From the NCBI GenBank assembly GCA_016199545.1, contig JACQGN010000114.1, positions 1-54,023 of the forward strand: a stretch of DNA of 54,023 nucleotides, read 5' to 3'. This DNA is from Betaproteobacteria bacterium. GTDB lineage: Bacteria; Pseudomonadota; Gammaproteobacteria; Burkholderiales; SG8-41. Both the position numbers and the translations under genes were made by a program. This document shows positions 36,769 through 50,702 of this stretch, in pieces; the first letter of the stretch is position 1, and every line of letters starts with the position of its first letter. Under the pieces are notes generated by a model that searched no databases, was not told the DNA's origin, and was given only the letters and a program-made list of their open reading frames with translations.

Positions 36769-37395
36769 TCAGTACTCGACCGGGATGGGATCAAGGCTGC
36801 GCCACAGATACCAGGTTGCCACCGAGCGCCACGGCGCCCACGTATCGGCGATCCGGCGCATCCTCCCCCGACTCAGTGGCCGGCCGCGACCGTAATGCAG
36901 ATTCATGGCCCGCTGCAGGCCGAGGTCGTCGAGCGGCAGCACATCGGGACGCGCAAGATAGAAGATCAGGAACATCTCCGCGGTCCAGCGCCCGATGCCT
37001 TTTACCTGGGTCAGTTCCAGGATCAATGCTTCGTCGCCGAGATGCCGCCAGGCACCCGCATCCAGCATCCCGGTGGCAAAGCGCTGCGCAAGGTCGCCGA
37101 GGTAAAGCGTCTTCTGCCGCGAGAGTCCGCAGCCGCGCAACTGTCCGGGATCCTTCGCGAGGACATTGGCAGGTGTGACGGCGCCGACTTCGGCTTCCAC
37201 CCGATTCCAGACAGACTGCGCAGCCTTGACGGAAATCTGCTGGCCCACAATGGCGCGCGCCAGCGTCTGGAAAGCGTTGCCGCGGCTCCCCAGAGCGAGT
37301 CCCTGGAACCGCGCGATGAGTCCGCGCAAGACCGCATCGCGGCGGGCGAGTTCACGGGCGGCGGTCTTCCAGTATTCGGGTGCCATGTGCGCCAT
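36769..37395 (-). CDS. DNA-3-methyladenine glycosylase II family (HhH-GPD, AlkA-like)
   Basis: HhH-GPD motif ...LTQVKGIGRWTAEMFLIFYLARPDVLPLDDLGLQRA... The start is ATG 37395 (or 37386). Confidence 0.85.
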   Translation of the reverse strand: MAHMAPEYWKTAARELARRDAVLRGLIARFQGLALGSRGNAFQTLARAIVGQQISVKAAQSVWNRVEAEVGAVTPANVLAKDPGQLRGCGLSRQKTLYLGDLAQRFATGMLDAGAWRHLGDEALILELTQVKGIGRWTAEMFLIFYLARPDVLPLDDLGLQRAMNLHYGRGRPLSRGRMRRIADTWAPWRSVATWYLWRSLDPIPVEY

Positions 37396-37460
37396 TTTAC
37401 CGAACGCGGTACGCCTACCCGTCATCTGCCGCGTTGAAGGTGCGACAGGAGGCATGCAGC

Positions 37461-39851
37461 GTGTGGGTGAGCGTCGTATTCTTCGCCGGCGGAGTCTGGT
37501 TGCTGCAACAGCAGGCGCAACTCCCCGCCATGACGCTCGCGTGCAGTCTGGCAACAGCCGGGGCCCTGATCCTGCTGCGCGGCGAACATGCGGCAATGCG
37601 CGTTAGCCGATGGGTGCTCACCTGCGCGTTGTGCCTGGGTGCGGGTTTTTTCTGGGCGGCGGCTGCCGCCCACTGGCGCATGTCGGATGCGCTGCCCGCG
37701 GAGTGGGAGGGACGGGACGTGATCCTCATCGGCACCGTCGCGAGCCTGCCGCAAGTCTACGAGCGCAGCGTGCGGTTCGAATTCGACGTCGAAACGGTGC
37801 TCACCGAAGGCGCGCACGTGCCACGCCGCGTCGTGCTCGCGTGGTGGGGCAGTTCCGCGCGCGAAGGCGCCCCGCCCACGCTCGCTGACGTGCGGGCCGG
37901 CGAGCGCTGGCAGCTGGCGGCGCGCTTTCGGCGGCCGCGCGGCACCGCCAATCCGCACGGCTTCGACTACGAGGCGTGGCTGCTCGAACGCGAGATACGG
38001 GCGACGGGTTACGTGCGCGGCAAAGGCGCGAACCGCAGACTCGCGGGGATGGTGCACCGGCCGGGCTACTGGGTGGAGGCGGCACGCGGCGCACTCAGGC
38101 AACGGATACAGCGGGCGTTGCCGGACGGGCCGTACGCAGGTGTGGTGGTCGCGCTCGGCATCGGGGACCAGCGCGCCATTGCGCAGGATCAATGGCAGGT
38201 CTTCACGCGCACCGGCGTCAATCACCTGATGAGCATTTCCGGTCTGCACGTGACGATGCTTTCCGGGCTGGCGTTTGTGCTGGCCTACTGGCTGTGGCGC
38301 CGGAGCGCGCGGCTCACGTTGTGGCTGCCGGCGCAAAAAGCAGCGGCGTTGTGCGGTGTCGCGGCGGCGTTCGCCTACACATTGCTTGCGGGCTTCGCCG
38401 TGCCCGCGCAGCGGACGCTTTACATGCTGGTGGTGGCGGCGGTCTTTCTCTGGTGTGGCATCACGGGTTCGGTGTCGACGATCCTGGCGGCGGCGCTCCT
38501 CGTTGTTCTGGTGCTCGACCCGTGGGCGGTACTGGCGCCGGGGTTCTGGCTTTCATTCAGCGCGGTGGCGGTGATCCTGTATGTGACCGTCGGCCGGATC
38601 GGCGACTCGCACTGGCTCAAATCGTGGCTCCACGTGCAATGGGCGGTGACGGTAGGGCTGGTACCGCTCCTCCTCGCGCTGTTCCAGCAAGTCTCGATCA
38701 TCTCGCCGCTGGCGAACGCGGTGGCGATTCCGGTCGTGAGCCTCATCGTAGTGCCGCTGACGCTCGCCGGCATGCTGCTGCCGTTCGATCTTGTCCTGGG
38801 CGCAGCACACCTGGTCATGGCGGGGTGCGGGTCGTTGCTCGAATGGATGAGCGCCGTGCCCGCCGCCGTCTGGCAACAGCGCGCGCCACCCGCATGGTCA
38901 ATGCCAGTTGCCGTAGGCGGCGTCGCCTGGCTGCTGCTGCCGCGGGGTTTTCCCGCGCGCTGGCTTGGCGTGGTCTGCCTGTTGCCGCTGTTTCTCGCGC
39001 CGCGGTCTGAACTGGCGGAGGGTGACTTCAAGCTGACCGTGCTGGACGTGGGGCAGGGACTTGCAGTCGTCGCGCAAACGCGCCATCACGCGCTTCTCTA
39101 CGACACCGGACCGGCCTTCGGTCCGGGGGCGGACAGCGGCAACCGCATCGTGGTGCCGTTCCTGCGTGCCTCTGGCATCGCGCGCCTTGACACCATGATC
39201 GTCAGTCATGACGACGTGGATCATACCGGGGGCGCACTGTCGGTGCTGCAGGCGCTGCCGGTGGCGAGGCTGCTCACGTCGCTGCCCGACATGGACCCCC
39301 TGTCGCTGATGGCGGAGCAGGCATTTCGATGCTTTGCCGAACAGCACTGGGAATGGGACGGAGTTCAGTTCGAAATGCTCCACCCGCCGCGCGCGAGTTA
39401 CGCCGAAACGGGACTCAAGGATAACGACCGGAGCTGCGTGATCAAGATCACCGCGAAGGGCGGCGCGGCGCTGCTGCCGGCGGACATCGAGCGGCGCGGG
39501 GAAACGGCGCTGTTGCGCGGGCACGGTGACGCGTTGCGCGTGCCGGTGCTGATTGCGCCGCACCAAGGCAGCAAGACCTCATCGATGGCGAGGTTCGTGG
39601 ACCGCGTCAATCCGGATGTGGTGATTTTCCCGGTGGGCTACCGTAACCGCTTCGGCCATCCGCATGAGGAAGTGGTCGACCGCTATCGCGCGATCGGCAG
39701 CCGCATCTATCGCACCGACCGCGACGGCGCCATTACGCTTGACTTCAGCGCTGCGGCTGTTATCCGCGTCGAGCCTTATCGCGCCACTTATCGGCGCTAC
39801 TGGCAGACGCCGCTCGTCGGCGACCCGGTCCCGGATCCGGAGGAGTTATGA
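37461..39851 (+). CDS. comEC: DNA internalization-related competence protein ComEC/Rec2
   Basis: It has an N-terminal DUF4131-like region, a multi-TM competence domain, and a C-terminal metallo-beta-lactamase domain (LTVLDVGQGLAVV...VSHDDVDHTGG). GTG 37461 is preceded by AGGAGG 8 nt upstream. Confidence 0.88.
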   Translation: MWVSVVFFAGGVWLLQQQAQLPAMTLACSLATAGALILLRGEHAAMRVSRWVLTCALCLGAGFFWAAAAAHWRMSDALPAEWEGRDVILIGTVASLPQVYERSVRFEFDVETVLTEGAHVPRRVVLAWWGSSAREGAPPTLADVRAGERWQLAARFRRPRGTANPHGFDYEAWLLEREIRATGYVRGKGANRRLAGMVHRPGYWVEAARGALRQRIQRALPDGPYAGVVVALGIGDQRAIAQDQWQVFTRTGVNHLMSISGLHVTMLSGLAFVLAYWLWRRSARLTLWLPAQKAAALCGVAAAFAYTLLAGFAVPAQRTLYMLVVAAVFLWCGITGSVSTILAAALLVVLVLDPWAVLAPGFWLSFSAVAVILYVTVGRIGDSHWLKSWLHVQWAVTVGLVPLLLALFQQVSIISPLANAVAIPVVSLIVVPLTLAGMLLPFDLVLGAAHLVMAGCGSLLEWMSAVPAAVWQQRAPPAWSMPVAVGGVAWLLLPRGFPARWLGVVCLLPLFLAPRSELAEGDFKLTVLDVGQGLAVVAQTRHHALLYDTGPAFGPGADSGNRIVVPFLRASGIARLDTMIVSHDDVDHTGGALSVLQALPVARLLTSLPDMDPLSLMAEQAFRCFAEQHWEWDGVQFEMLHPPRASYAETGLKDNDRSCVIKITAKGGAALLPADIERRGETALLRGHGDALRVPVLIAPHQGSKTSSMARFVDRVNPDVVIFPVGYRNRFGHPHEEVVDRYRAIGSRIYRTDRDGAITLDFSAAAVIRVEPYRATYRRYWQTPLVGDPVPDPEEL
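39791..39842 (+). repeat. 52-bp direct repeat, left copy (last codons of comEC)
   Basis: ATCGGCGCTACTGGCAGACGCCGCTCGTCGGCGACCCGGTCCCGGATCCGGA matches 43967-44018 at 51 of 52 positions. Confidence 0.9.
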
Positions 39852-40642
39852 GCATCGCAGCCTTTACGCGGCATTCCGTCTTCTGGATAAGCCAGGCGCG
39901 CAAGGAAGGTGTTGAGAATCAGCGTGTCCCGGTCTTCCACATGCTGCGCGACCGTTTGAATACCGAATGTCCGACATGCGCGAGTGAGTGAACGCAGCTT
40001 TGCGATAGATCCTATATTACCCATCAGGTTTTTGGTCAGGCCACCGCCGATTTTCATGAAATCCGCCGTGAAATCCTTCGCTGGCCGGAATGTTACGCCG
40101 CCTGGGTGGTCAACCCCGACTGCAATACTGCAGCCTGCCGCCTTGAGTCTCGTAGTGAACTCATGCGTAACCGGATCGGATGGTCCGTCAACGCTCGGGA
40201 TCTCAAAACAAAGACTGTCACCGCCGCAACCGGCGGTCTCTAATTCGGCGACAACGAGTGAAGGAAATTCCAGGTCGATCAAAGTTCCCCGGCAGAGATT
40301 GATATGCAGAATGAATCCGACCTCGCGCCTGTTGCTGCGATACCAGGCCAGAGCCCGCCGCAGCACATGCTGGTCGAGCGTCGGACCAAGCTTGTAGTGC
40401 TCAAGTCTCGGCAGGAAGGTTCCGGGCGGGACCACGTTTTGTTCTTCCTCTTTCAGCCGGACGTAAATCTCGGTGTGTGGACGGTTGTCGCCACCCGATC
40501 CCAATTTCTCGACCGGTTGGCTGTACAGCAGGAATTCGTTCTGCGCAAATGCCTGGGCAAACCTTTCCCGCGGATCTTCCCATTCAAGAAAGCCATTCGC
40601 TGTGCTGCCGACATAACCCTGCACGAAATCTCCGCCGTCCAT
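39797..40642 (-). CDS. Degenerate EAL-domain protein
   Basis: The EAL-fold pattern is recognisable (FLLYSQPV...TEIYVRL...PPGTFLP...HINLC...FEIPS...DFMKIGG...VAQHVED), but catalytic positions diverge (EAL to EIY, DDFG to VDHPG, K-x-D to K-x-G). The last 15 or so codons are antisense to the comEC tail. Confidence 0.6.
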   Translation of the reverse strand: MDGGDFVQGYVGSTANGFLEWEDPRERFAQAFAQNEFLLYSQPVEKLGSGGDNRPHTEIYVRLKEEEQNVVPPGTFLPRLEHYKLGPTLDQHVLRRALAWYRSNRREVGFILHINLCRGTLIDLEFPSLVVAELETAGCGGDSLCFEIPSVDGPSDPVTHEFTTRLKAAGCSIAVGVDHPGGVTFRPAKDFTADFMKIGGGLTKNLMGNIGSIAKLRSLTRACRTFGIQTVAQHVEDRDTLILNTFLARLAYPEDGMPRKGCDAHNSSGSGTGSPTSGVCQ

Positions 40643-40694
40643 GACCTGTGTCTCGCTGTTGTTCTCGCCGCCTCACGAAAATCCCGTGGCCGGC

Positions 40695-41006
40695 TCAGGC
40701 GGCATCGATGAGTTCCGGGGTGAGCGAGAGTATGGCCTGGTGGATGTGAAGCTGGAAACGCAGGAATTCCACAGCCGCATCGAGGGCATCGAAACACAGG
40801 GGCTCATTGTTCTCGTTGACAACGTAGTACACGTCCCACTCCGGATAGGCTGTTTGCTTCCCTATTGCGTAACCCATGCGATAGGGCCCGACACACCACA
40901 TCGTCGGGCTCACCAGCGCGATGTGTCTTGCCTTGTCCAGGGTCAGCATGTGCCGACCGCAGGAATTGACCGGCAGCTCGTTTAACCACACATTGGCTGT
41001 ATCCAT
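40695..41006 (-). CDS. Hypothetical protein (103 aa)
   Basis: An ORF in an operon position between the degenerate GGDEF and EAL genes. No family recognised. Confidence 0.45.
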   Translation of the reverse strand: MDTANVWLNELPVNSCGRHMLTLDKARHIALVSPTMWCVGPYRMGYAIGKQTAYPEWDVYYVVNENNEPLCFDALDAAVEFLRFQLHIHQAILSLTPELIDAA

Positions 41007-41054
41007 AGTTGCGACTCCGGATCATTGCGCCAGGTTGGGCAACTCGCGTAGCCG

Positions 41055-41666
41055 TCAACCGGCATCGATGCAGTTGCTGGCGCTGGCTTCAGCGTGGGAC
41101 AGCGCCGATTCGGCCCGTTGCATCAAGGCGCCGATGTCCTCGCCACGCCTAAACTCCGCCAGACCGATCGACGCGGTGACTTTGCACGGCCGGCTCAGAC
41201 CGCCTATTTCCAGCGATGCAATCCGGCGGCGCACGCGCTTCGCTGGAATGGACGCTCGGTCGAGACGGGTCTGGAGGAGAACGAAAACAAACTTTTCGTC
41301 ACCGTAACGGCCGACCGCGTCCACCCCGCGCAGTTCCACCGCGATCGCAGCGGCTACGTGGCGCAGCACATTGTCGCGCGTTGCGCGCCCGTGGAAGTCA
41401 TCGACCATGCCGAGGGAGTCGACATCGACGATGCCCACGCAAAACACGCCTTGCCCTGCATCGCTCCGCGCTTTTTCCTGCTCCAGCAACGCCACGAGAT
41501 GCCGCTGATCGTGGACTCCCGTGACCTCATCGAAAATCGGCCCGCGCCGGGTTTGCGCCAAGTTCTGCTGCGGATCGTGGTTGGGCCCGCACAACTTTTG
41601 CAGCAGGGCGCGGATGTAGTCGCCTACAACTGTGCGCGCTGCTGCGTGAGCGATGGCGGAGAACAT
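41055..41666 (-). CDS. Degenerate GGDEF-domain protein (GDEKF in place of GGDEF; RxxD retained)
   Basis: DEVTGVHDQRHL...VDVDSLGMVDDFHGRATRDNVL...RGVDAVGRYGDEKFVFVL...ASIGLAEF aligns to a GGDEF domain with a broken A-site and an RGVD motif 5 residues upstream. Confidence 0.7.
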   Translation of the reverse strand: MFSAIAHAAARTVVGDYIRALLQKLCGPNHDPQQNLAQTRRGPIFDEVTGVHDQRHLVALLEQEKARSDAGQGVFCVGIVDVDSLGMVDDFHGRATRDNVLRHVAAAIAVELRGVDAVGRYGDEKFVFVLLQTRLDRASIPAKRVRRRIASLEIGGLSRPCKVTASIGLAEFRRGEDIGALMQRAESALSHAEASASNCIDAG

Positions 41667-41709
41667 GCTTGGACCTCACATCGGTGCGGCGGTGCACCCC
41701 CGGATTTGC

Positions 41710-42861
41710 CTAGTTCCGCATGATGGCGTAGCCATCGGGCAGCGCGATCCCCCGGGGAGCGTCCGTGTTACCGAGGGCGCGCGCGCGGTCATTCGGCGCA
41801 GGGCAAGCGAGCCCCGGAGGCGAGTCCCTCCCCAAAGTTGCGCGGTAATCAAGCCCGCGCGGCGCGATGACAACCCGGTTGCGTCCGCCACCCTTGGCGA
41901 GGTACACCGCATGCTCGGCTTCCGACAAGAGATCCTCGGGGGTGTCGCCATGCTCGGGATAGGCAGCGACTCCGATCGAAACCGTTATCCGGCATACAAG
42001 ATCGGGGTTCGGCCGGAGTTCGAGCATTTCAACTCTCGCCCGCAGCTTCTCGGCGCGCGCCGCCACCACATCGGTCGCCGCATCGGGCATGACCAGGAGG
42101 AACTCCTCGCCTCCCAGCCGGCAGGCGATGTCTTCCTTGCGGATGCCGCCGGCGAGCAGCGCGCCCAACTCCCGCAGCGCCGCATCGCCCGCGTCATGCC
42201 CGTAGGTGTCATTGATGTGCTTGAAGTCATCGATGTCCAACGCGATCACTCCAAGCCGGGAACGACGCTGCACAGCACGACTCAACTCCCGCGCCAGTGC
42301 GTCGGTGAGGTGGCGACGGTCGTAGAGCCCGGTGAGCCGATCGCGCGGCGCCAGCACGCCCAGTTCAAGTTGCGCCATCACCTGGGCCGCGAGGAACTGC
42401 AGCGCCTCGCGCTGCTCGTCGGTCAACTTCCGCCGCACATAGTCGATCACCGACACCGAGCCCAACACATGCCCGTCGGGCGCCACGATTGGCGCTCCGG
42501 CGTAGAAACGAACATGCGGCGCGCCCGCCACCCACGGGTGCCGCTCGAAGCGCGGATCGCGGCTCGCGTCCCGCACCTCGAACACCTTGCCTCGGCGCAT
42601 GGCGTAATCGAAGAACGCGTGCGAGCGAGGCGCCTCGGACACCGTGAAGCCCAGCGCCGACTTGAAGAATACGCGCGTTTCATCGACCAGGCCCACCAGC
42701 GCGACCGGCGTGGCGCAGAAGCGGGAGGCGAGCAGCGTAATGTCGTCGAACCGCCGTTCGTATCCGGTCTCCAGCGCGTAGTAGCCCCGCAGCGTCGCCA
42801 GCCGCTCGGCTTCTTCCTTGCTTGGGAGCACTCTTACTCCCGCCTCAGTGATTGACTCCAT
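41710..42861 (-). CDS. GAF-domain diguanylate cyclase (intact GGEEF and RxxD I-site)
   Basis: The GAF-like region (...ALVGLVDETRVFFKSALG...FYAGAPIVAPDGHVLGSVSVID) is followed by DRLTGLYDRRHL...DIDDFKHINDTYGHDAGD...RKEDIACRLGGEEFLLV. ATG 42861 is preceded by GGAGG; an alternative GTG start is at 42987. Confidence 0.85.
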   Translation of the reverse strand: MESITEAGVRVLPSKEEAERLATLRGYYALETGYERRFDDITLLASRFCATPVALVGLVDETRVFFKSALGFTVSEAPRSHAFFDYAMRRGKVFEVRDASRDPRFERHPWVAGAPHVRFYAGAPIVAPDGHVLGSVSVIDYVRRKLTDEQREALQFLAAQVMAQLELGVLAPRDRLTGLYDRRHLTDALARELSRAVQRRSRLGVIALDIDDFKHINDTYGHDAGDAALRELGALLAGGIRKEDIACRLGGEEFLLVMPDAATDVVAARAEKLRARVEMLELRPNPDLVCRITVSIGVAAYPEHGDTPEDLLSEAEHAVYLAKGGGRNRVVIAPRGLDYRATLGRDSPPGLACPAPNDRARALGNTDAPRGIALPDGYAIMRN

Positions 42862-42989
42862 TGATGCCTCCAACGTCAGTTGATCGAGCCCAGCACACGA
42901 CGCCCCCGGATTGAAGCTGTTGCCGTTGTCCACGTTGTCGGGACTTCCGTTGCCGGTCCTGCGTTTATTCCGTTTAGCGGGCGCCACAC

Positions 42990-43325
42990 CTAAATGAAAG
43001 ACGCCAGCGCCCTGACGCGGTCGAGGAACGCATCATCGATCGACGCCAGATCCTCGGGCAGATCGGGCCCGGTTTCATACAGGTGCCGGTCGCAGGCCGT
43101 CGTGTGCAGCCCACCAACAATCGCTGACTCGGTGCGCGGCGGTTCCGCGCTGTCGCTCGGCAGTGCCGCAACTTGCGCCGCTTTCGCATGACTGAATTCA
43201 TCCTGGTAGGTCACGATCGCACTCTCCAATTGGTTGATCCGTACCAAGCACGTGCAGATTTCATGCCAGGCGCCTTGGAGGAACGGCGTGGAAAGATAAC
43301 TTGAGTGCAACGATCTGATCCACAA
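42990..43325 (-). CDS. Hypothetical protein (111 aa, or 75 aa from GTG 43214)
   Basis: The ORF ends 3 nt before the extended start of the cyclase gene. The internal GTG 43214 has GGAGAG 7 nt upstream. No family recognised. Confidence 0.35.
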   Translation of the reverse strand: MWIRSLHSSYLSTPFLQGAWHEICTCLVRINQLESAIVTYQDEFSHAKAAQVAALPSDSAEPPRTESAIVGGLHTTACDRHLYETGPDLPEDLASIDDAFLDRVRALASFI

Positions 43326-43603
43326 GGATTTGAAGAGGAGCGGTGTGACCGTGCGCTGCGTACCGTATTCCTGAATTTGCGTCGAGAACTTGACGATCGC
43401 TAGAGATGCCGGCGACTGCCCAGCGTTTTTTCGATATTACCCCTGCAAGAACCGTGAACTTTGTCACTGCACACGTCCGTGGGTACGCTGGCTGATCCAA
43501 GACAAAGCACGGCACATGGCCGCGCATCAAGAGTGCTTCACCGACTACTACCAGTTTGCCGAGGGCTTGTTTGACGCGGCCGAGAAGGACACGCACAGAC
43601 AGC

Positions 43604-43786
43604 TCAACCGGCGAGCGGTGCCGCCAGAATCGTGGTGAAAACGGTCAGATCGAACACCATACGCCATGCGATAGATGCTCTTTCGCCCGCATATCCGCCA
43701 TGACGCGCCATTGCACGGACGCCGGAGAGGAACGAAATGATCACGCCCATTGTGCCTACAAAGGTGAGAAGAGCGAATGTGTTCAT
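43604..43786 (-). CDS. Twin-transmembrane-helix small protein (HIG1-like)
   Basis: 60 aa, MNTFALLTFVGTMGVIISFLSGVRAMARHGGYAGERASIAWRMVFDLTVFTTILAAPLAG: two TM helices around a basic loop, resembling the HIG_1_N / twin-TM small protein pattern. Confidence 0.45.
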   Translation of the reverse strand: MNTFALLTFVGTMGVIISFLSGVRAMARHGGYAGERASIAWRMVFDLTVFTTILAAPLAG

Positions 43787-43966
43787 GGCTGCCTCGATTC
43801 CTGTCTGTTGATGGCCACACTGTAGCGGGCCGGAATGCCCAGGTCTGTCAGGAGATCACGACAAGTTCCCATGCTGATACAGGGAATCCATGATTGCGTC
43901 GTGCCTCGAAACAGTGCGCGAGGGTGACCGATGTGGAAATCGGGATGGCCGCGAACGCTATGGAGC

Positions 43967-44018
43967 ATCGGCGCTACTGGCAGACGCCGCTCGTCGGCGA
44001 CCCGGTCCCGGACCCGGA
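43967..44018 (+). repeat. 52-bp direct repeat, right copy (orphan duplicate of the comEC 3-prime end)
   Basis: ATCGGCGCTACTGGCAGACGCCGCTCGTCGGCGACCCGGTCCCGGACCCGGA would encode ...RRYWQTPLVGDPVPDPEAL-stop but has no comEC-like sequence upstream. Confidence 0.9.
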
Positions 44019-44091
44019 AGCGCTCTGACCGTACTCGCGATCGTGGTAAGCGATTTCGAGCGCGTTGAGTTCCAACCGGGGCGGCGCGGTC

Positions 44092-47000
44092 TCATCCCGC
44101 TGGCCACGGCTGATAGAGCAGATCCAGCGTCAGCGGGAAATCGGGATTGGGCGGTTCGGGGCGCACCGTCATGGGCCCCGGCGTGTGGCCATGGTCCCAG
44201 AAGCGCGCGGTGCGCCGTGCCTCGGCTTCGCCGGCATTGACCGGGTAGGCATCGTAGTTGCGTCCGCCGGGGTGCGAGACGTGGTAAGTGCAGCCGCCGA
44301 TCGAGCGCCCGCTCCAGGTATCCACGATGTCGAACACGAGCGGCGTGTGTATGCCGATCGTCGGATGCAACGCCGACGGCGGATGCCAGGCGCGGTAGCG
44401 CACGCCGGCGACGGACTCACCGGGTATTCCGGTGGGATGAAGCGGCAGCGCGCGGCCGTTGCAGGCGACGACATGGCGCGGGGCGGTGAGCCCGGTGACT
44501 CTCACCTGCAGGCGCTCCACCGAGGAATCGACGTAGCGGGCGGTCGCGCCGGCACTCACGTCTTCTCCGAGGACGTTCCAAGGCTCGAGCGCGTGGCGCA
44601 GTTCAAGCTGCGTGTTGTCGTAGACCACCGTGCCATAGCGCGGGAAGCGGAATTCAATGAAAGGCGCAAACCAGCGGGAATCGAACGAATAGCCGGCGCG
44701 CTGCATGTCCAGCGCGATATCGTGCATGTCGGCCGCGACGAAGTGGGGCAGCATGAAGCGGTCGTGAAGCTGCGTACCCCAGCGGATGAGCGCGCCCGAG
44801 TACGGCGTCCTGCAGAAGCGGGCCACCAAGCCGCGCAGCAGCAGCATATGCACGAGGCTCATCTGCGGATGCGGCTGCATCTCGATGGCGCGGAGTTCAA
44901 GCAGCCCCAGCCGCCCGGTCGGGGCGTCCGGCGAGTGGAGTTTGTCGATGCAGAACTCGGCGCGATGGGTGTTGCCGGTGAGATCGACCAGCAGATTGCG
45001 CAACATGCGATCCACCAGCGACGGCGCCACCGATCCGTCTCCAGCGTTCTGCTCCAGTTTCATCTGCTGGAACGCGATCTCGAGTTCGTAGAGCGAATCG
45101 TGACGCGCTTCGTCGACGCGCGGCGCCTGGCTGGTAGGGCCGATGAACCGGCCCGCGAACAGGTACGACAGGGCGGGGTGGTTCTGCCAGTAGGCGATCA
45201 GGCTCTGCAACAGGTCGGGGCGCCGCAACAGTGGACTGTCCACTGGTGTCGGCCCGCCGAGCGTCGCATGGTTGCCGCCGCCGGTGCCGGTGTGGTGTCC
45301 ATCGAGCATGAATTTCTCGGTGGTGAGGCGCGTGGCCCGCGCGTCCTCGTGCAGGGCGAGCGTGTTCCCGACCAGTTCGTTCCAGCCCGCCGCAGGGTGG
45401 ATATTGACTTCGATCACACCGGGGTCCGGCGTGACGTTCAGAACCCTGATGCGGGTATCGAACGGCGGCGGATAGCCTTCCAGCCGCACGGGGCGGGCGA
45501 GTGCGGCGGCGACGCGCTCGACCGCGGCTACCAGAGCGATGAAGTCCTCGGTGCGCAACAAAGGTGGGAGAAATACGTGGACACGTCCGTGCCGCACTTC
45601 CACAGTGAACGCGGTGCGCACCACGGCGCGGCCCGGTTCGGACTGCAATTCGCCCGGCAAGCGGGCGGGCAGCGAATCGAGCGGGAGACGATTGCCGATC
45701 GAAGCATCACCCGGTATCAGAAAGAGACATGTGCGCCGCAAGGGCCACGGGGACGTCTCCCACGTTTCTGGAGATCCCGGTTGTTCCGCTGCGCGGCGCG
45801 GACGCAGCGGGAGCACGATTCCCGCAACCTGTGCGGGTGCGCCTTCGAGCCTGCCGAGAATTCGCGTTCGGTCGGATTCCGGCGCACTCGACGCGTGTGC
45901 CGGATCCGCATCAATCGGAAGCCGTCCTTCTGCCTCCAGCAGCGGGAGCGGATCCTCAAAGGCCTCGATGAGGGATTCGTGAGTCAAGCCCAGTGCATCG
46001 GCAATGCCTCGCGCCACGCGCCACGCATCATCGAGAGTGGCATTGGCCGCAGATGACTCACTTGCGATCAGACCGGGGTCGCGCCATAGGGGCTCGCCGT
46101 CCACGCGCCAATACACTCCGATCGCCCAGCGCGGCACCGGCTCGCCCGGATACCACTTGCCCTGGCCATAGAACACCATGCCGCCGGGCGCGAAGCGCGC
46201 CCGCAGGCGCCATGCAAGCTGCTCGGCGAGTTCCCATTTGTGCTGGCCGAGTGCGGCCGTATTCCACTGCGGATCTTCGCGTTTGTCGATCGCGACGAAA
46301 GTGGGCTCGCCCCCCTGCGTAAGACGCACGTCGCCCGCCGCAAGCTCAGTGTCGATGTCCCGGCCCAGGCGGTCGATCGCGCTCCACTGGTCGTCGCCGT
46401 AGGGCCGGGTGGTCCGGGGATCTTCATGGATACGCATCACCGACGCAGAGAACTCGAACGTCGTCTCGCACGGCTCGACCGCGCCGGTAACCGGCGCGGC
46501 CGCCGCGGGGGAGGGTGTGCACGCAAGCGGGATATGTCCCTCGGCGCAGAACAGGCCCGAGGTGGGGTCGAGTCCGACCCAACCGGCACCGGGGAGGTAG
46601 ACCTCGGCCCAGGCGTGCAGATCCGCAAAGTCGCGCTCCGAGCCCGCGGGACCGTCGAGCGGCTTCACATCCGGCTTGAGCTGAATCAGGTAGCCGGAGA
46701 CAAAACGTGAGGCAAATCCCAGATGGCGCAGGATCTGCACCAGGAGCCACGCGCTGTCGCGGCACGATCCGCTCGCGCGCTGCAGCGTTTCCTCGCAATC
46801 CTGGACGCCGGGTTCCATGCGCACGACGTATCGCACGTCACGACTCAGGCCGCGGACGAGATTGACCAGGAACTCGACCGTGCCGGTTGTCGCTCCCTCG
46901 CGGCGCACGGATGCGATCCACGCGGTGAGCCGCTGGCCGCGTTCCGCAAGGTCAAGGAACGGCACGAGATCCCGCGCGAGTTCGCCGCGGTAGGCAATCG

Positions 47001-47307
47001 GATAGCGCTCGGCGTCATTTTCGACGAAGAAATCGAAGGGGTTGATGACGCGCATATCGGCAATGAGGTCGACCGTGATCTCCAGTGCTCCGGCCTTCTC
47101 CGGAAAGACGAAGCGCGCGACGTGATTGCCGAAGACGTCCTGCTGCCAGTGGACGAAATGCCGATCAGGCGCGATATTGAGCGAATAGCCGAGTATCGGG
47201 GTGCGGCAATGCGGCGCAGGGCGCAGGCGGATCTGGTGCGGCGACAGGATGACCTGCTTGTCGTAACGGTAGCGGGTCTGGTGGTGCAGTGCGACCTGGA
47301 TACTCAT
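44092..47307 (-). CDS. Transglutaminase-family protein with DUF2126-type C-terminal region (1071 aa)
   Basis: It has Bact_transglu_N (MSIQVALHHQTRYRYD...) and a transglutaminase core with catalytic Cys (SGSCRDSAWLLVQILRHLGFASRFVSGY), then a long conserved C-terminal region. The start is ATG 47307. Confidence 0.9.
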   Translation of the reverse strand: MSIQVALHHQTRYRYDKQVILSPHQIRLRPAPHCRTPILGYSLNIAPDRHFVHWQQDVFGNHVARFVFPEKAGALEITVDLIADMRVINPFDFFVENDAERYPIAYRGELARDLVPFLDLAERGQRLTAWIASVRREGATTGTVEFLVNLVRGLSRDVRYVVRMEPGVQDCEETLQRASGSCRDSAWLLVQILRHLGFASRFVSGYLIQLKPDVKPLDGPAGSERDFADLHAWAEVYLPGAGWVGLDPTSGLFCAEGHIPLACTPSPAAAAPVTGAVEPCETTFEFSASVMRIHEDPRTTRPYGDDQWSAIDRLGRDIDTELAAGDVRLTQGGEPTFVAIDKREDPQWNTAALGQHKWELAEQLAWRLRARFAPGGMVFYGQGKWYPGEPVPRWAIGVYWRVDGEPLWRDPGLIASESSAANATLDDAWRVARGIADALGLTHESLIEAFEDPLPLLEAEGRLPIDADPAHASSAPESDRTRILGRLEGAPAQVAGIVLPLRPRRAAEQPGSPETWETSPWPLRRTCLFLIPGDASIGNRLPLDSLPARLPGELQSEPGRAVVRTAFTVEVRHGRVHVFLPPLLRTEDFIALVAAVERVAAALARPVRLEGYPPPFDTRIRVLNVTPDPGVIEVNIHPAAGWNELVGNTLALHEDARATRLTTEKFMLDGHHTGTGGGNHATLGGPTPVDSPLLRRPDLLQSLIAYWQNHPALSYLFAGRFIGPTSQAPRVDEARHDSLYELEIAFQQMKLEQNAGDGSVAPSLVDRMLRNLLVDLTGNTHRAEFCIDKLHSPDAPTGRLGLLELRAIEMQPHPQMSLVHMLLLRGLVARFCRTPYSGALIRWGTQLHDRFMLPHFVAADMHDIALDMQRAGYSFDSRWFAPFIEFRFPRYGTVVYDNTQLELRHALEPWNVLGEDVSAGATARYVDSSVERLQVRVTGLTAPRHVVACNGRALPLHPTGIPGESVAGVRYRAWHPPSALHPTIGIHTPLVFDIVDTWSGRSIGGCTYHVSHPGGRNYDAYPVNAGEAEARRTARFWDHGHTPGPMTVRPEPPNPDFPLTLDLLYQPWPAG

Positions 47308-47341
47308 GGCGTCCCACTCACCGGAGCCGCGCGGTGATGGA

Positions 47342-48082
47342 CTACGCGCCCACGGTCCAGTCGGGATTCGGGATGCCGGCAAACACCTTGCGCAGGCCGT
47401 TGCCCCATTGCTGGTGGATCATTGTGAAGTAAGGATCGTCTTCTTCGACGCGCCTTTGCATGCCGATCCTGAAGCTGTCGCGCACGTAAACCAGCAGGTC
47501 GATAGGCAGTCCCACCGAAATATTGCTGCGCATGGTCGAATCGAACGACACCAGTATGCACTTCGTCGCATCGAGTATTTCGGTATTGCACTTGATCACC
47601 CGGTCGATGACCGGCTTGCCGTACTTGCTCTCGCCGATCTGAAAGTAGGGCGTGTCGCGGGTGGCTTCGATGAAATTGCCCTCGTTGTAGATGTGGAACA
47701 GCCGCTGGCGCTCGCCCCGGATCTGCCCGCCAACCAGCAGTGTTGCGCTTGCGTCGACGTTGCTCTGCTCGAGATACGGTCCGTCGCGCCGCTTGACTTC
47801 GCGCAGCGTTTCACCCACCCGTTCTGCGACCTCGATCATCGAGGCGACGTTCATGACGGTCTTCTTGGCGTCGGGGTTGCGCGACTGGTGGTCGAGAATG
47901 TTGACCACGTTCTGGGTGATCGAAAGGTTACCGGAGGAAAGAATGATGATGACCCGCTCGCCCTCGGTGGCGAAGATTCTCATCTTGCGAAAACTCGAGA
48001 CGTGATCGACGCCGGCGGAGGTTCGCGAATCCGAAGCGAACACCATTCCCACGTCCAGAACCGCGGCTACGCAATAAGTCAT
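47342..48082 (-). CDS. Proteasome-type protease (Anbu, ancestral beta-subunit family)
   Basis: MTYCVAAVLDVGMVFASDSRTSAGVDHVSSFRKM... has an N-terminal Thr directly after Met, the Ntn-hydrolase beta-subunit pattern characteristic of Anbu. Confidence 0.88.
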   Translation of the reverse strand: MTYCVAAVLDVGMVFASDSRTSAGVDHVSSFRKMRIFATEGERVIIILSSGNLSITQNVVNILDHQSRNPDAKKTVMNVASMIEVAERVGETLREVKRRDGPYLEQSNVDASATLLVGGQIRGERQRLFHIYNEGNFIEATRDTPYFQIGESKYGKPVIDRVIKCNTEILDATKCILVSFDSTMRSNISVGLPIDLLVYVRDSFRIGMQRRVEEDDPYFTMIHQQWGNGLRKVFAGIPNPDWTVGA

Positions 48083-48145
48083 CGGAGCACCTTCTCGAAT
48101 GAGCCGGTGAGCTTAGGGCAAACGCCCGGCGTTGACAAGCCGGTT

Positions 48146-49153
48146 TCAGCGGGAGGCCTGCGTCATGCCCGCGCGGCCGGGTTCCGGCGCGGTCACGTAC
48201 TCCGGAACCAGGAAATGCCGGTTGATCTCGCCGTTGAGCGCGTCCAGCTTCTCGATGAAGCTCATGAGGTATTCGTGCAGTCCCAGGCTGATGATCTGCT
48301 CGGTGCGGCCGTAATGCAGATGGGCGTGGATCTCGCCGGCCAGCCGCTCTGCTTCGCGCGACGACGGTTCGCAGATGTCGCGCAGGATGTCGTAGATCTC
48401 GTTCATGCAGGCGTGGAGCGACCGTGGCACGTCATCGCGCAGCACCAGCAGCTCGGCGACCCGCATTGGGGTCAGCACGTCGCGGTAGACCTTGCGATAG
48501 GCATCGAAGGCGCTTACGGAGCGCAGCAATGCGCTCCACTGGTAATAGTCGACCGCCCCGCCCACGTCCGTGACACTCGGCAGCAGCGTGTGATACTTGA
48601 CGTCGAGCAGCCGCGCCGTGTTGTCGGCGCGCTCGATGAAAGTCCCGAGACGGATGAAACTGTAGCCTTCGTCGCGCAGCGAGGTGCCGAAGGTGACGCC
48701 TCGAAACTGGTGCGAGCGCGTTTTGACCCAATCGAAGAACCCGCTCACCCCGCGCGCCTGCAAGCCGTCGAAATCCCGGTCGCGCAGCTCCAGCCAGAAC
48801 GCGTTGATGTCCTCGTACATCTCCGAGGTGATGGCCCCGCGGGCGGTGCGCGCGTTCTCGCGCGCGGACTGGATGCACGAGTAGATGCTGGAAGTGTTGG
48901 TGGCGTCGAGCACCATGTACCGCAGCACGTTCTCGGCGGACAACGGGCCCGGATAGCGTTCATAGTACGCCGTGGCGAGCCCGTTGATCACCAGCGGCAG
49001 CGCCCACGGCTCGGCCCACGACTGTCCCGGCTCGAGGATGCGGTAGGGCAGCAGCGACATGCGGTAGGTGACATCGAGCAGCCGCGCGGTATTCTCCGCG
49101 CGCTCGATGTGCCGCGACATCCAGTAGAGGTTGTTGGCGACCCGGCTTAACAT
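48146..49153 (-). CDS. Alpha-E domain protein (DUF403)
   Basis: MLSRVANNLYWMSRHIERAENTARLLDV... is the alpha-E N-terminal signature. Confidence 0.9.
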   Translation of the reverse strand: MLSRVANNLYWMSRHIERAENTARLLDVTYRMSLLPYRILEPGQSWAEPWALPLVINGLATAYYERYPGPLSAENVLRYMVLDATNTSSIYSCIQSARENARTARGAITSEMYEDINAFWLELRDRDFDGLQARGVSGFFDWVKTRSHQFRGVTFGTSLRDEGYSFIRLGTFIERADNTARLLDVKYHTLLPSVTDVGGAVDYYQWSALLRSVSAFDAYRKVYRDVLTPMRVAELLVLRDDVPRSLHACMNEIYDILRDICEPSSREAERLAGEIHAHLHYGRTEQIISLGLHEYLMSFIEKLDALNGEINRHFLVPEYVTAPEPGRAGMTQASR

Positions 49154-49158
49154 GGGGC

Positions 49159-49259
49159 AATGATGAATGCGGAATGATGAATGCGGAATACAGGCTCCGA
49201 CGAACGAGCGTGCATTGCAATACTATTCATCATTCAGCATTCCCAATTCATCATTCCTC
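49159..49259. repeat. Heptamer-array palindromic element (AATGATG/AATGCGG units), intergenic
   Basis: The left arm is AATGATG AATGCGG AATGATG AATGCGG AATA. After a 34-nt spacer, the right arm is ATTCATC ATTCAGC ATTCCCA ATTCATC ATTCCTC. The arms are imperfectly complementary (about 26 of 32). Confidence 0.85.
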
Positions 49260-50702
49260 TAGCACCCACGTATCCTTGGTTCCGCCGCCCTGGGACGAGT
49301 TGACGACGAGCGAACCCTCGCGCAGCGCAACGCGCGTGAGTCCTCCCGGCACCAGCGTCACCGACCTGCCGCTCAACACGTACGGCCGCAGGTCCACGTG
49401 ACGCGGGGCGATGCCCGAGCCGCAGAATGTCGGGCAGGTGGAAAGCGCCAGCGTCGGCTGAGCAATGAAGGAGGCGGGGTTTGCGACGATACGCTCGCGG
49501 TAGGCGGCGATCTCCTGCAGGGTTGCAGCGGGGCCCACCAGCATGCCGTAACCGCCCGATCCCTGCACCTCCTTGACCACCAGTTCGTGCAAATGTTCGA
49601 GCGTGTACTGGAGGTCGTCCGGAATCCCGAGGCGGTAGGTCGGAACATTGGAGAGGATCGGATTCTCGCCGAGATAAAACCGGATCATCTCCGGCACGTA
49701 GGTGTAGATCGACTTGTCGTCGGCGACGCCGGTGCCGATCGCGTTGGCAAGCGTGACGCTGCCGGTGCGGTAGGCGGAAAAGAGTCCCGGTACGCCCAGC
49801 ACCGAATCGGGCCGGAACGCGACCGGATCCAGAAAGTCGTCATCGATGCGCCGGTAGATCACATCCACGCGCTGCGGGCCGCGGGTCGTGCGCATGTAGA
49901 CGACGTCGTTCGCGACGAAGAGGTCCTGGCCTTCGACCAGTTCCACGCCCATCTGCTGCGCGAGGAAGGCATGCTCGAAATAGGCGCTGTTGTACGGACC
50001 CGGGGTCAGCACCGTGACCGCGGGATTCATGATGCCGGGCGGGGCGACCGCGCGCAGGTTGTCGAGGAGCACGTCGGGGTAGTGATCGACCGGCGCCACC
50101 GCCATGCGCGCGAACAGTTCCGGGACGAGCCGCATCATCATCCTGCGGTTTTCGAGCATGTAGGAGACGCCCGACGGCGTGCGCAGATTGTCTTCGAGCA
50201 CGTAGAACCGGTCGCGATCGGTCTGCACGATGTCGATGCCGGCGATGTGGATGTAGACGTCACCGGGAACGTCGAACCCGCACATTTCGCGGCGGTAGAG
50301 ATTGTTGTTGAGTATCGGTTCCGCCGGCACGCGCCCCGCCTTGATGATCTCTTGTGCGTGATAGACATCCCTGAGGAACGCGTTGAGGGCGCGCACCCGC
50401 TGGCGCGTGCCGTCGCAGATGGTCTTCCACGCGTCCGGGCGCAGGATGCGCGGGATTATGTCGAAGGGGATCGAGCGTTCGACGCCGCCTCCGTCGCCAT
50501 ACACCGCGAAGGTGATGCCAAGGCGGGTATACAAGGTATCCGCCTCGCGTTGCTTCTGCAGCATGTACTCGAGCGGCTTGTCCGTGAGCCATGCCGCATA
50601 GCGCTCGTAGTGGGGCCGCACCGACCCGTCAACGTCGTGCATCTCGTTGTAGATTTGGGACCGGGGAGGAGCGCTCTCAGGCTCAAGAGCCGATTTGTTC
50701 AT
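49251..50702 (-). CDS. Circularly permuted type-2 ATP-grasp protein (DUF404/DUF407)
   Basis: ...RPHYERYAAWL...LGITFAVYGD...ERSIPFDIIPRIL...YVLEDNLRTPSGVSYMLENR... is the typical pattern. It is the first gene of the Anbu operon. Confidence 0.9.
   Translation of the reverse strand: MNKSALEPESAPPRSQIYNEMHDVDGSVRPHYERYAAWLTDKPLEYMLQKQREADTLYTRLGITFAVYGDGGGVERSIPFDIIPRILRPDAWKTICDGTRQRVRALNAFLRDVYHAQEIIKAGRVPAEPILNNNLYRREMCGFDVPGDVYIHIAGIDIVQTDRDRFYVLEDNLRTPSGVSYMLENRRMMMRLVPELFARMAVAPVDHYPDVLLDNLRAVAPPGIMNPAVTVLTPGPYNSAYFEHAFLAQQMGVELVEGQDLFVANDVVYMRTTRGPQRVDVIYRRIDDDFLDPVAFRPDSVLGVPGLFSAYRTGSVTLANAIGTGVADDKSIYTYVPEMIRFYLGENPILSNVPTYRLGIPDDLQYTLEHLHELVVKEVQGSGGYGMLVGPAATLQEIAAYRERIVANPASFIAQPTLALSTCPTFCGSGIAPRHVDLRPYVLSGRSVTLVPGGLTRVALREGSLVVNSSQGGGTKDTWVLEE

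Follow-up and report, generated by a model that had tools for sequence, protein, structure and literature searches.

We analysed a stretch of 54,023 nucleotides from an uncultured betaproteobacterium (hereafter the window; assembly GCA_016199545.1, contig JACQGN010000114.1), in which a 4.2-kb islet was horizontally acquired and inserted, without an integrase of its own, in the 3' end of comEC. Five co-directional minus-strand genes of this islet lie between comEC and a gene encoding a transglutaminase-like protein. They encode, in this order, a small orphan protein that we call p85, a GAF-GGDEF diguanylate cyclase, a degenerate GGDEF protein of 203 aa, a second orphan protein (p103) and a degenerate EAL protein. 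This order and these domains had been described in an original prediction made from the sequence of the window and are confirmed by the open reading frames (ORFs) and by Pfam and NCBIfam searches. On balance, we favour the view that the islet carries a mobile local cyclic di-GMP (c-di-GMP) module, in which predicted non-catalytic sensor domains would be combined with orphan partners and which would be partly decayed in this genome. Comparison with related loci indicates that the recurring unit is the trio p85-p103-degenerate EAL and that the five-gene order is an elaboration of this trio specific to the lineage. For this comparison, eight congeners were examined, with G002 as the sister genome. 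Labels in L designate related loci or contigs (L019 being the Logan SRR22388042 contig and L026 being G003:C149), and C178, C248 and C270 are other contigs of the window genome.

The EAL protein belongs to a clade that is predicted to be uniformly non-catalytic, with degenerate motifs yet with conserved c-di-GMP-contacting residues. In the alignment with the active phosphodiesterase PA0861/RbdA (5xgb), the EAL motif is replaced by EIY within EIYVRL, with the Glu and the following Arg kept, DDFG is replaced by VDHPG and KID by KIG (KIGG). The three altered catalytic positions given in the original prediction (EIY, VDHPG and KIGG) are therefore borne out. Furthermore, the general-base Glu is replaced by Gln (AQHVE for AE(F/G)VE), HINL keeps the Asn and, in FEIPS, the second Glu of ExxE is replaced by Ser. 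The clade was compared using 26 stand-alone EAL proteins sharing 43-92% identity. Nearly all of them keep the Gln (QP/QS), E-I-Y/F-V-R-L, the Asn, the first Glu of ExxE, the Lys and QG. DDFG is lost in all 26, at a position that is hypervariable, the general-base Glu is a Gln in all members but P0108 (ATYVE), and KID is replaced by KIG in most of them. The canonical EAL domains encoded by neighbouring genes keep every catalytic residue. The pairwise dN/dS of the EAL genes is 0.21-0.33, indicating purifying selection. Since the degenerate positions are fixed across the whole range of identities and dN/dS remains at 0.2-0.33, the loss of catalysis appears to be ancient and maintained. The Gln of QP, E-x-x-x-R, the Asn, the Lys and QG line the c-di-GMP pocket in RocR, TBD1265, FimX and LapD.

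The copy carried by the window is a truncated allele. Homology to the relatives covers residues 1-241 (40642-39920); residues 242-281 are unrelated, being made of a deletion scar (39883-39919) followed by antisense comEC sequence. Alignment of the DNA with G002, whose EAL gene has an intact tail, shows that about 240 nt are missing between 39883 and 39919. The deletion takes away the final strand and helix of the barrel, about 35 residues including LG(F)DYAQGY with the QG motif. Because of this deletion, the Pfam EAL match is partial, covering profile positions 2-217 of 236 versus 2-236 in L020, and the complete (beta/alpha)8 domain is absent here. As the tail and QG are lost, the EAL receptor may fail in this genome; the module is thus probably impaired here, and G002 would hold its intact form.

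The 203-aa GGDEF protein, under purifying selection (dN/dS 0.30), has lost catalytic residues and keeps the residues by which known receptors contact c-di-GMP. Compared with PleD, RYGGEEF becomes RYGDEKF, K332 becomes Gly and N335 becomes Asp; D327, D344, R366 and E370 are kept. The RxxD of the inhibitory site (I-site) is retained five residues upstream (RGVD-AVGRY-GDEKF), as RGVD or RRAD in the relatives. The PleD alignment hence confirms the RYGDEKF motif, the altered substrate region and the retained RGVD that had been read from the sequence. The signature GD[DE]xF plus RxxD is found in all four subfamily members and is common to G002, L019 and a paralogue located on C270. Within the family of the host, the protein has no closer relatives and other matches reach at most 41% identity. 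The stand-alone paralogue (C270:11722-12300; L062:4696-5373) is 59% identical to the 203-aa protein and reads RYGDDEF and RRAD. It adjoins a DUF559-like ORF and an 86-aa C-terminal EAL fragment with intact AEGVE/QGY.

By contrast with these two degenerate proteins, the GAF-GGDEF protein bears every sequence signature expected of an active, product-inhibited diguanylate cyclase. It scores 149 bits against PF00990 (cut-off 23.8), 168.6 against TIGR00254 (cut-off 37.4) and 59 bits against GAF. The motifs DIDDFKHIND, GHDAGD and RKED-IACRL-GGEEF leave the substrate-binding residues, the metal-binding residues and the I-site intact, and the equivalents of PleD D327, K332, N335, D344 and R366 are present together with GG[D/E]EF. 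Motif reading and Pfam thus agree with the earlier description of an intact GGEEF, DxDxFKxxND region and RKED I-site. The dN/dS of the gene is 0.31. The cyclase signature is conserved in G002 and in L031-L034 and is not conserved in L019, where the 85%-identical GAF-GGDEF homologue (L019:55-981) reads RLGDEKF, i.e. the same G to D and E to K changes as the 203-aa GGDEF protein of the window. Some GGDEF proteins, the Hypr-GGDEF enzymes, are recognised by the residue at the position equivalent to D344. The cyclase was considered as such a cGAMP synthase and this was rejected, its D344 equivalent being Asp (GHDAGD). A GGAGG motif is located 6 nt before ATG 42861 and gene calls on related contigs place the same start; ATG 42861 is therefore most likely the start, rather than GTG 42987.

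The protein p103 is strongly constrained (dN/dS 0.13-0.18) and rare. Close homologues number about 12 among 5.8 billion proteins, and a profile search of 1.84 billion representatives retrieved 69 clusters. It is present in 24 of the 159 genomes of the host's family and is absent from a sample of 400 other genomes drawn from across the order. Searches taking in 67 family members gave no match in Pfam, NCBIfam, PADLOC or PHROGs, and a PDB profile search pointed to no known family for p103 or p85. Structure prediction (AlphaFold2) gave a confident alpha/beta model for p103, with a predicted local distance difference test score (pLDDT) of 88 and a predicted template-modelling score of 0.79. For p85, the pLDDT is 67. 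Against the PDB, the best Foldseek match of the p103 model has an E-value of 0.17 and a template-modelling (TM) score of 0.42, and no PilZ is found among the matches. Since there is no significant fold match in the PDB, p103 is neither PilZ-like nor SiaC-like. Against BFVD, the model gives weak matches to small uncharacterised phage proteins (E-value 1.7e-3, TM scores 0.57-0.76). Domain fusions of p103 were looked for and rejected: long frames that seemed open are artefacts of high GC content, and the match P0055, to a repeat protein, is spurious.

The first gene of the islet had been predicted to encode a protein of 75-111 aa. A real protein is indeed encoded there, with another size and start, its true form being the 85-aa p85: homologues from G002 and metagenomes start at the equivalent point and distant ones align only from TTG 43247. 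Homologues with 38-96% identity head the cassette in L012, L020, L065 and L067. The model of p85 has helices at residues 4-27 and 72-83 separated by a disordered middle, and its C-terminal helix is conserved (LPxDLASIDxAFLDRVxALASxI). Its dN/dS is 0.34-0.68. Searches with 11 family members assigned it to no known family in Pfam, NCBIfam, PADLOC or PHROGs. The 75-aa ORF was rejected, as it lies in another frame, has an atypical GC content by codon position and shows no independent conservation. The 111-aa ORF located upstream was also rejected as a sixth gene, with stops in its L033 counterpart, a dN/dS of 0.6-0.8 and no codon-phase bias.

Close homologues of p103 (66-94% identity) were examined in nine contexts, the window and G002 being counted once and P0008/P0097 being left out, and c-di-GMP genes lie beside p103 in eight of these nine. 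In the islet and in G002, the order is p85, GAF-GGDEF, degenerate GGDEF, p103 and EAL. L019 first carries GAF-GGDEF (85%, GDEKF), an extra ORF and the degenerate GGDEF (75%, GDDRF), then p103 (86%, with its N-terminus replaced) and EAL (69%), followed by a JetD_C fragment and RelE/helix-turn-helix (HTH) genes. L020 carries a p85 homologue, p103 and EAL (55%) with no GGDEF gene, and L067 carries p85-p103-EAL adjoining genes for a response regulator (RR)-GAF-GGDEF-EAL protein and an HD-GYP-like protein. In L011, p103 lies between an EAL gene with intact catalytic motifs and an RR-GAF-GGDEF-EAL gene, and in L012 p103 and a p85 homologue are divergently oriented, after which comes a gene for a transmembrane PAS protein. 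L018 has p103 with a 58-aa EAL fragment and L013 has p103 alone. In addition, L065 and L066 carry p85-EAL without p103 and L068 carries EAL alone. The p103 homologue P0008 and the EAL homologue P0097 each have, as longest contig, one of 2881 bases from NCBI; they probably share it and may be adjacent. The neighbourhood of the L067 locus (L067:796-5869) resembles a defence island: immediately upstream of the trio are a restriction-modification-type gene (HSDR_N_2/N6_Mtase/Eco57I), a gene for a 456-aa protein of unknown function and a DUF6088 gene.

Hence, p103, and usually p85 too, travels with the non-catalytic EAL clade; p103 is upstream of the EAL gene in L019, L020, L067 and G002. Homologues, constraint and contexts show that both small proteins of the original prediction exist and that they are associated with genes of c-di-GMP signalling. 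The five genes, which the same prediction took as one unit, occur together in the window lineage (G000, G002 and near-identical metagenome contigs) and in L019; elsewhere, the trio or p85-EAL recurs. In G000 and G002, p103, the degenerate GGDEF and GAF-GGDEF are intact ORFs with 91-96% identity. The GGDEF pair is found between p85 and p103 only in the window lineage and L019, and since the trio recurs without GGDEF genes in L020 and L067, the five-gene order is an elaboration of the trio. The base composition of the islet is mosaic, the GC content being 0.57-0.59 in p85, p103 and EAL, 0.64-0.66 in both GGDEF genes and 0.66-0.67 in the flanking DNA. Such a pattern, in which the trio is low in GC and the GGDEF pair is host-like, is consistent with the pair having been inserted into the trio.

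The islet is bracketed by two direct repeats of 62 nt (Table 1), 92% identical and enclosing 4177 bp, which are the sole such pair in the genome. They duplicate the 3' end of comEC in such a way that the comEC ORF is restored. The same pair and cargo are found in G002, and tblastn matches comEC residues 804-823 at the position of the right repeat in G002 and L034. Of the eight congeners, G002 alone carries the cassette at the comEC site. Because of the flanking repeats, the lower GC content of p85, p103 and EAL, the patchy distribution and the different flank in L019, the cassette can be considered as horizontally acquired, as originally proposed. No integrase or recombinase ORF or domain was detected within 39852-43966 in the ORF list, Pfam or NCBIfam. 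No truly empty site was found in the congeners, synteny being broken in G008. In G003, a tag-like glycosylase gene replaces the islet between comEC and the transglutaminase-like gene. Its product (L026:4310-4951, 213 aa) resembles DNA-3-methyladenine glycosylase I, as judged by sequence rather than by family search. The presence of this ORF indicates that the junction is a variable spot. The flanking gene (window 44092-50702), which encodes a giant transglutaminase-like/DUF2126-type protein, served as synteny anchor.

Table 1. Features of the islet and of its borders in the window
Feature	Position	Strand	Remark
comEC	37380-39851	+	
Left direct repeat, attL-like	39790-39851	+	Final 62 nt of comEC including stop codon; 92% identical to 43967-44028
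Stand-alone degenerate EAL protein, 281 aa, 3'-truncated allele	39797-40642	-	Pfam EAL 97 bits, profile positions 2-217/236
p103, orphan 103-aa acidic cytoplasmic protein	40695-41006	-	Candidate EAL partner
Degenerate GGDEF protein, 203 aa, N-terminal extension of ~45 aa	41055-41666	-	Pfam GGDEF 81 bits
GAF-GGDEF diguanylate cyclase, 383 aa from ATG 42861	41710-42861	-	ORF open to GTG 42987
p85, 85-aa acidic protein, TTG start 43247	42990-43247	-	Frame of the 111-aa ORF of the original prediction
Probable non-coding upstream/leader region	43248-43603	-	111-aa ORF at 43261-43596 most likely spurious
p60, small basic two-helix membrane protein	43604-43786	-	Weak DUF2909/twin-helix matches
Right direct repeat, attR-like	43967-44028	+	Orphaned copy of comEC 3' end
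Transglutaminase-like gene, 1096 aa	44092-47382	-	

Under the favoured reading, that of a mobile module for local c-di-GMP signalling, the GAF domain would sense a ligand and thereby trigger local c-di-GMP synthesis by the product-inhibited cyclase. The degenerate EAL protein would act as a c-di-GMP sensor, by analogy with LapD and FimX, and p103 would be its partner or adaptor, relaying its state to a target. The degenerate GGDEF protein would bind c-di-GMP at its RxxD site, by analogy with PelD and PopA; alternatively, it might form unproductive heterodimers that restrain the cyclase. p85, with its two helices joined by a disordered linker, could be a regulatory accessory encoded at the head of the operon. 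From the retained contact residues, we infer that either degenerate protein would bind c-di-GMP. The original prediction had proposed, as one plausible reading, a self-contained, horizontally transferred signalling cassette in which a sensor cyclase makes c-di-GMP that two degenerate receptors read. Horizontal acquisition, intact cyclase signatures and receptor-like degeneracy stand; the five-gene unit is not conserved, the L019 writer reads GDEKF and the EAL protein is truncated here.

Several observations weigh against the module, even in the form that we favour. The cyclase homologue of L019 has the GDEKF motif, and the EAL protein of the window, lacking the last ~35 residues of its fold including QG, may not work here. 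p85 is weakly constrained and its TTG start has no Shine-Dalgarno motif. Copies are frequently damaged (replaced N-terminus of p103 in L019, EAL fragment only in L018), p103 is alone in G003, and distant members of the p103 family are mostly not beside c-di-GMP genes, three of about 22 having a GGDEF gene within 1.5 kb. Moreover, no linked output gene (exopolysaccharide, pilus, adhesin or transcription factor) was found.

Alternatively, the islet might be decaying cargo, left over from a mobile element and undergoing pseudogenisation, with no working signalling here and with a degeneracy partly due to erosion. Compared with G002, deletions have removed the 3' end of the EAL gene; no integrase is encoded in the island, and the cassette is absent from six of the eight congeners. 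Since L019 has both a GDEKF cyclase and a p103 whose N-terminus is replaced, and since L018 retains only the 58-aa EAL fragment, decayed copies do appear to be frequent. However, the degenerate EAL positions are shared clade-wide, at 43-92% identity and with dN/dS of 0.2-0.33, p103 and both GGDEF genes are intact in G000 and G002 (91-96%), and damage in the window is confined to the EAL tail. We therefore consider general decay as rather unlikely.

Another explanation is that EAL and p103 form a c-di-GMP-independent regulator, a protein-binding scaffold resembling YdiV/STM1344, the GGDEF genes being incidental or belonging to a separate circuit. This would account for the lost catalytic residues of EAL, for the loci without dedicated cyclase (L020, L065 and L067) and for L011, where p103 is paired with an EAL protein having seemingly intact catalytic motifs. 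It seems improbable since the clade keeps the pocket residues (Gln of QP, E-x-x-x-R, Asn, Lys and QG) and since the trio contexts repeatedly lie beside large RR-GAF-GGDEF-EAL or PAS proteins. Finally, a defence or addiction module (nucleotide-triggered abortive infection, or a toxin-antitoxin-like system with p85/p103 as effector and antidote) is very improbable: it would suit the mobile, integrase-less location, the restriction-modification locus and DUF6088 near L067, the JetD_C fragment and RelE/HTH near L019 and the best, although weak, fold matches of p103 to small phage proteins (E-value 1.7e-3), but none of the seven proteins matches PADLOC or PHROGs save a chance CorA-like match of p60 (PADLOC, E-value 0.017), no toxin-like domain was found, the contexts are mostly ordinary signalling neighbourhoods and, c-di-GMP produced by GGDEF enzymes has, to our knowledge, no established role as a messenger in defence.

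Among known systems, LapD and FimX are EAL-domain c-di-GMP receptors and PelD and PopA are GGDEF-domain receptors (PMC10519070). As in LapD of Pseudomonas fluorescens and FimX of P. aeruginosa and Xanthomonas, the metal-binding and general-base residues of the EAL protein are lost and the pocket residues are kept across its clade, QG being deleted in the window copy. The EAL domains of FimX and LapD are among its PDB sequence matches (4f3h, 4foj and 3pjt). Unlike them, it is a stand-alone protein of ~270 aa without GGDEF, HAMP, PAS or REC domain, it belongs to its own AQHVE clade, its partner would be an orphan protein instead of LapG or PilZ, and the window copy is truncated. The FimX-PilZ pair of Xanthomonas (PDB 4f48/4fou), in which a degenerate EAL domain is associated with a small adaptor of ~100 aa, serves as working analogy for EAL-p103. 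In this pair, the PilZ adaptor need not itself bind c-di-GMP. However, p103 has no PilZ domain according to Pfam (67 family members) or to its fold, and no type IV pilus genes are linked to it.

The 203-aa GGDEF protein resembles PelD and PopA by its altered active-site motif (GDEKF) and by the RxxD retained five residues upstream. It differs from them by its size, its short N-terminal extension, the absence of GAF or transmembrane segments (PelD) or receiver domain (PopA) and the conserved equivalents of the metal-binding D327 and E370. Its best structure and NCBIfam matches are to SiaD of the SiaABCD system (PDB 7e6g, E-value 6e-22; NF038266, 115.6 bits), a protein of comparable size whose GGDEF domain is likewise preceded by a helical N-terminal stalk. 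SiaD carries GGEEF, is active as a cyclase and is controlled by a small partner protein, SiaC. In contrast, the NF038266 score of 115.6 is far under the equivalog cut-off of 290, and neither SiaA, SiaB or SiaC (DUF1987) nor PP2C or kinase genes were found in the cassette by Pfam and NCBIfam. The co-encoding of a cyclase and an EAL-type protein also recalls the trigger phosphodiesterases and other local modules that act as interaction-based switches (PdeR-DgcM-MlrA; PMC5052742). Unlike trigger phosphodiesterases, which are catalytically active, the EAL protein has no catalytic residues here and no transcription factor is linked. As for the islet itself, the 62-nt repeat of the target 3' end, the lower GC content and the lack of internal recombinase recall integrase-less att-flanked islets that look like remnants of cis-mobilisable elements; it differs from them in that the genome yielded no cognate element carrying an integrase.

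The remaining part of the islet encodes p60, which is real and belongs to a separate repeated module outside the c-di-GMP trio. Together with ~140 nt upstream (43604-43924), p60 is repeated at C178:639-959 (87.5% nucleotide identity over 321 nt) and at C248:4394-4662 (73%). The C178 copy adjoins a gene for an AlpA-like regulator at the start of the contig. These repeats hint at an island family sharing the p60 end. p60 is absent from L031, and at L031:2046-2126, at the junction between the islet and the transglutaminase-like gene, a fragment matches comEC residues 746-772 instead of 804-823. Since L031 has another comEC fragment and no p60, the right end of the islet varies between lineages. 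The genes of the islet lie close together, with gaps of 43-129 nt between them, and all but p85, with its TTG start, have a Shine-Dalgarno-like motif in front, i.e. four of the five. Neither a c-di-GMP riboswitch nor any other RNA was detected by an RNA search of the islet; a match to CRISPR-DR20 (E-value 0.034, under the gathering score) was judged to be due to chance. A sigma-70 promoter scan gave no site, and terminator-like sites are not commoner than in shuffled sequences.

The domain types found here and the use of degenerate GGDEF and EAL domains as receptors are already well known. However, Pfam, NCBIfam, PADLOC, PHROGs, the PDB and a literature search yielded no description of the p85-p103-EAL trio, of the stand-alone AQHVE EAL proteins as one clade or of the p103 fold. 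The cassette is thus an undescribed, lineage-restricted version of ordinary second-messenger signalling. Its significance is limited by its occurrence in one family of uncultured Betaproteobacteria, by the lack of a linked output pathway and by the damaged copy carried here.

Degenerate GGDEF and EAL domains are common, and for most of them neither the receptor role nor the downstream partner is known. Here, two small orphan proteins are genetically linked to a clade of predicted non-catalytic EAL proteins in a compact transferable module, which also provides a natural example of a cyclase pair inserted into a sensor module. Being constrained and confidently folded, p103 is a candidate for a new c-di-GMP effector-adaptor pair. 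More tentatively, p103 with p85 could constitute a new class of c-di-GMP output adaptors, as dedicated partner of stand-alone non-catalytic EAL sensors (E-I-Y/F-V-R-L...AQHVE...QG) within a portable module, a proposal that we regard as possible rather than probable. If true, it would be a functional analogue of FimX-PilZ built from an unrelated fold, and the sensor-adaptor trio would be plugged by its hosts into local cyclases, GAF-GGDEF in this lineage and RR-GAF-GGDEF-EAL elsewhere.

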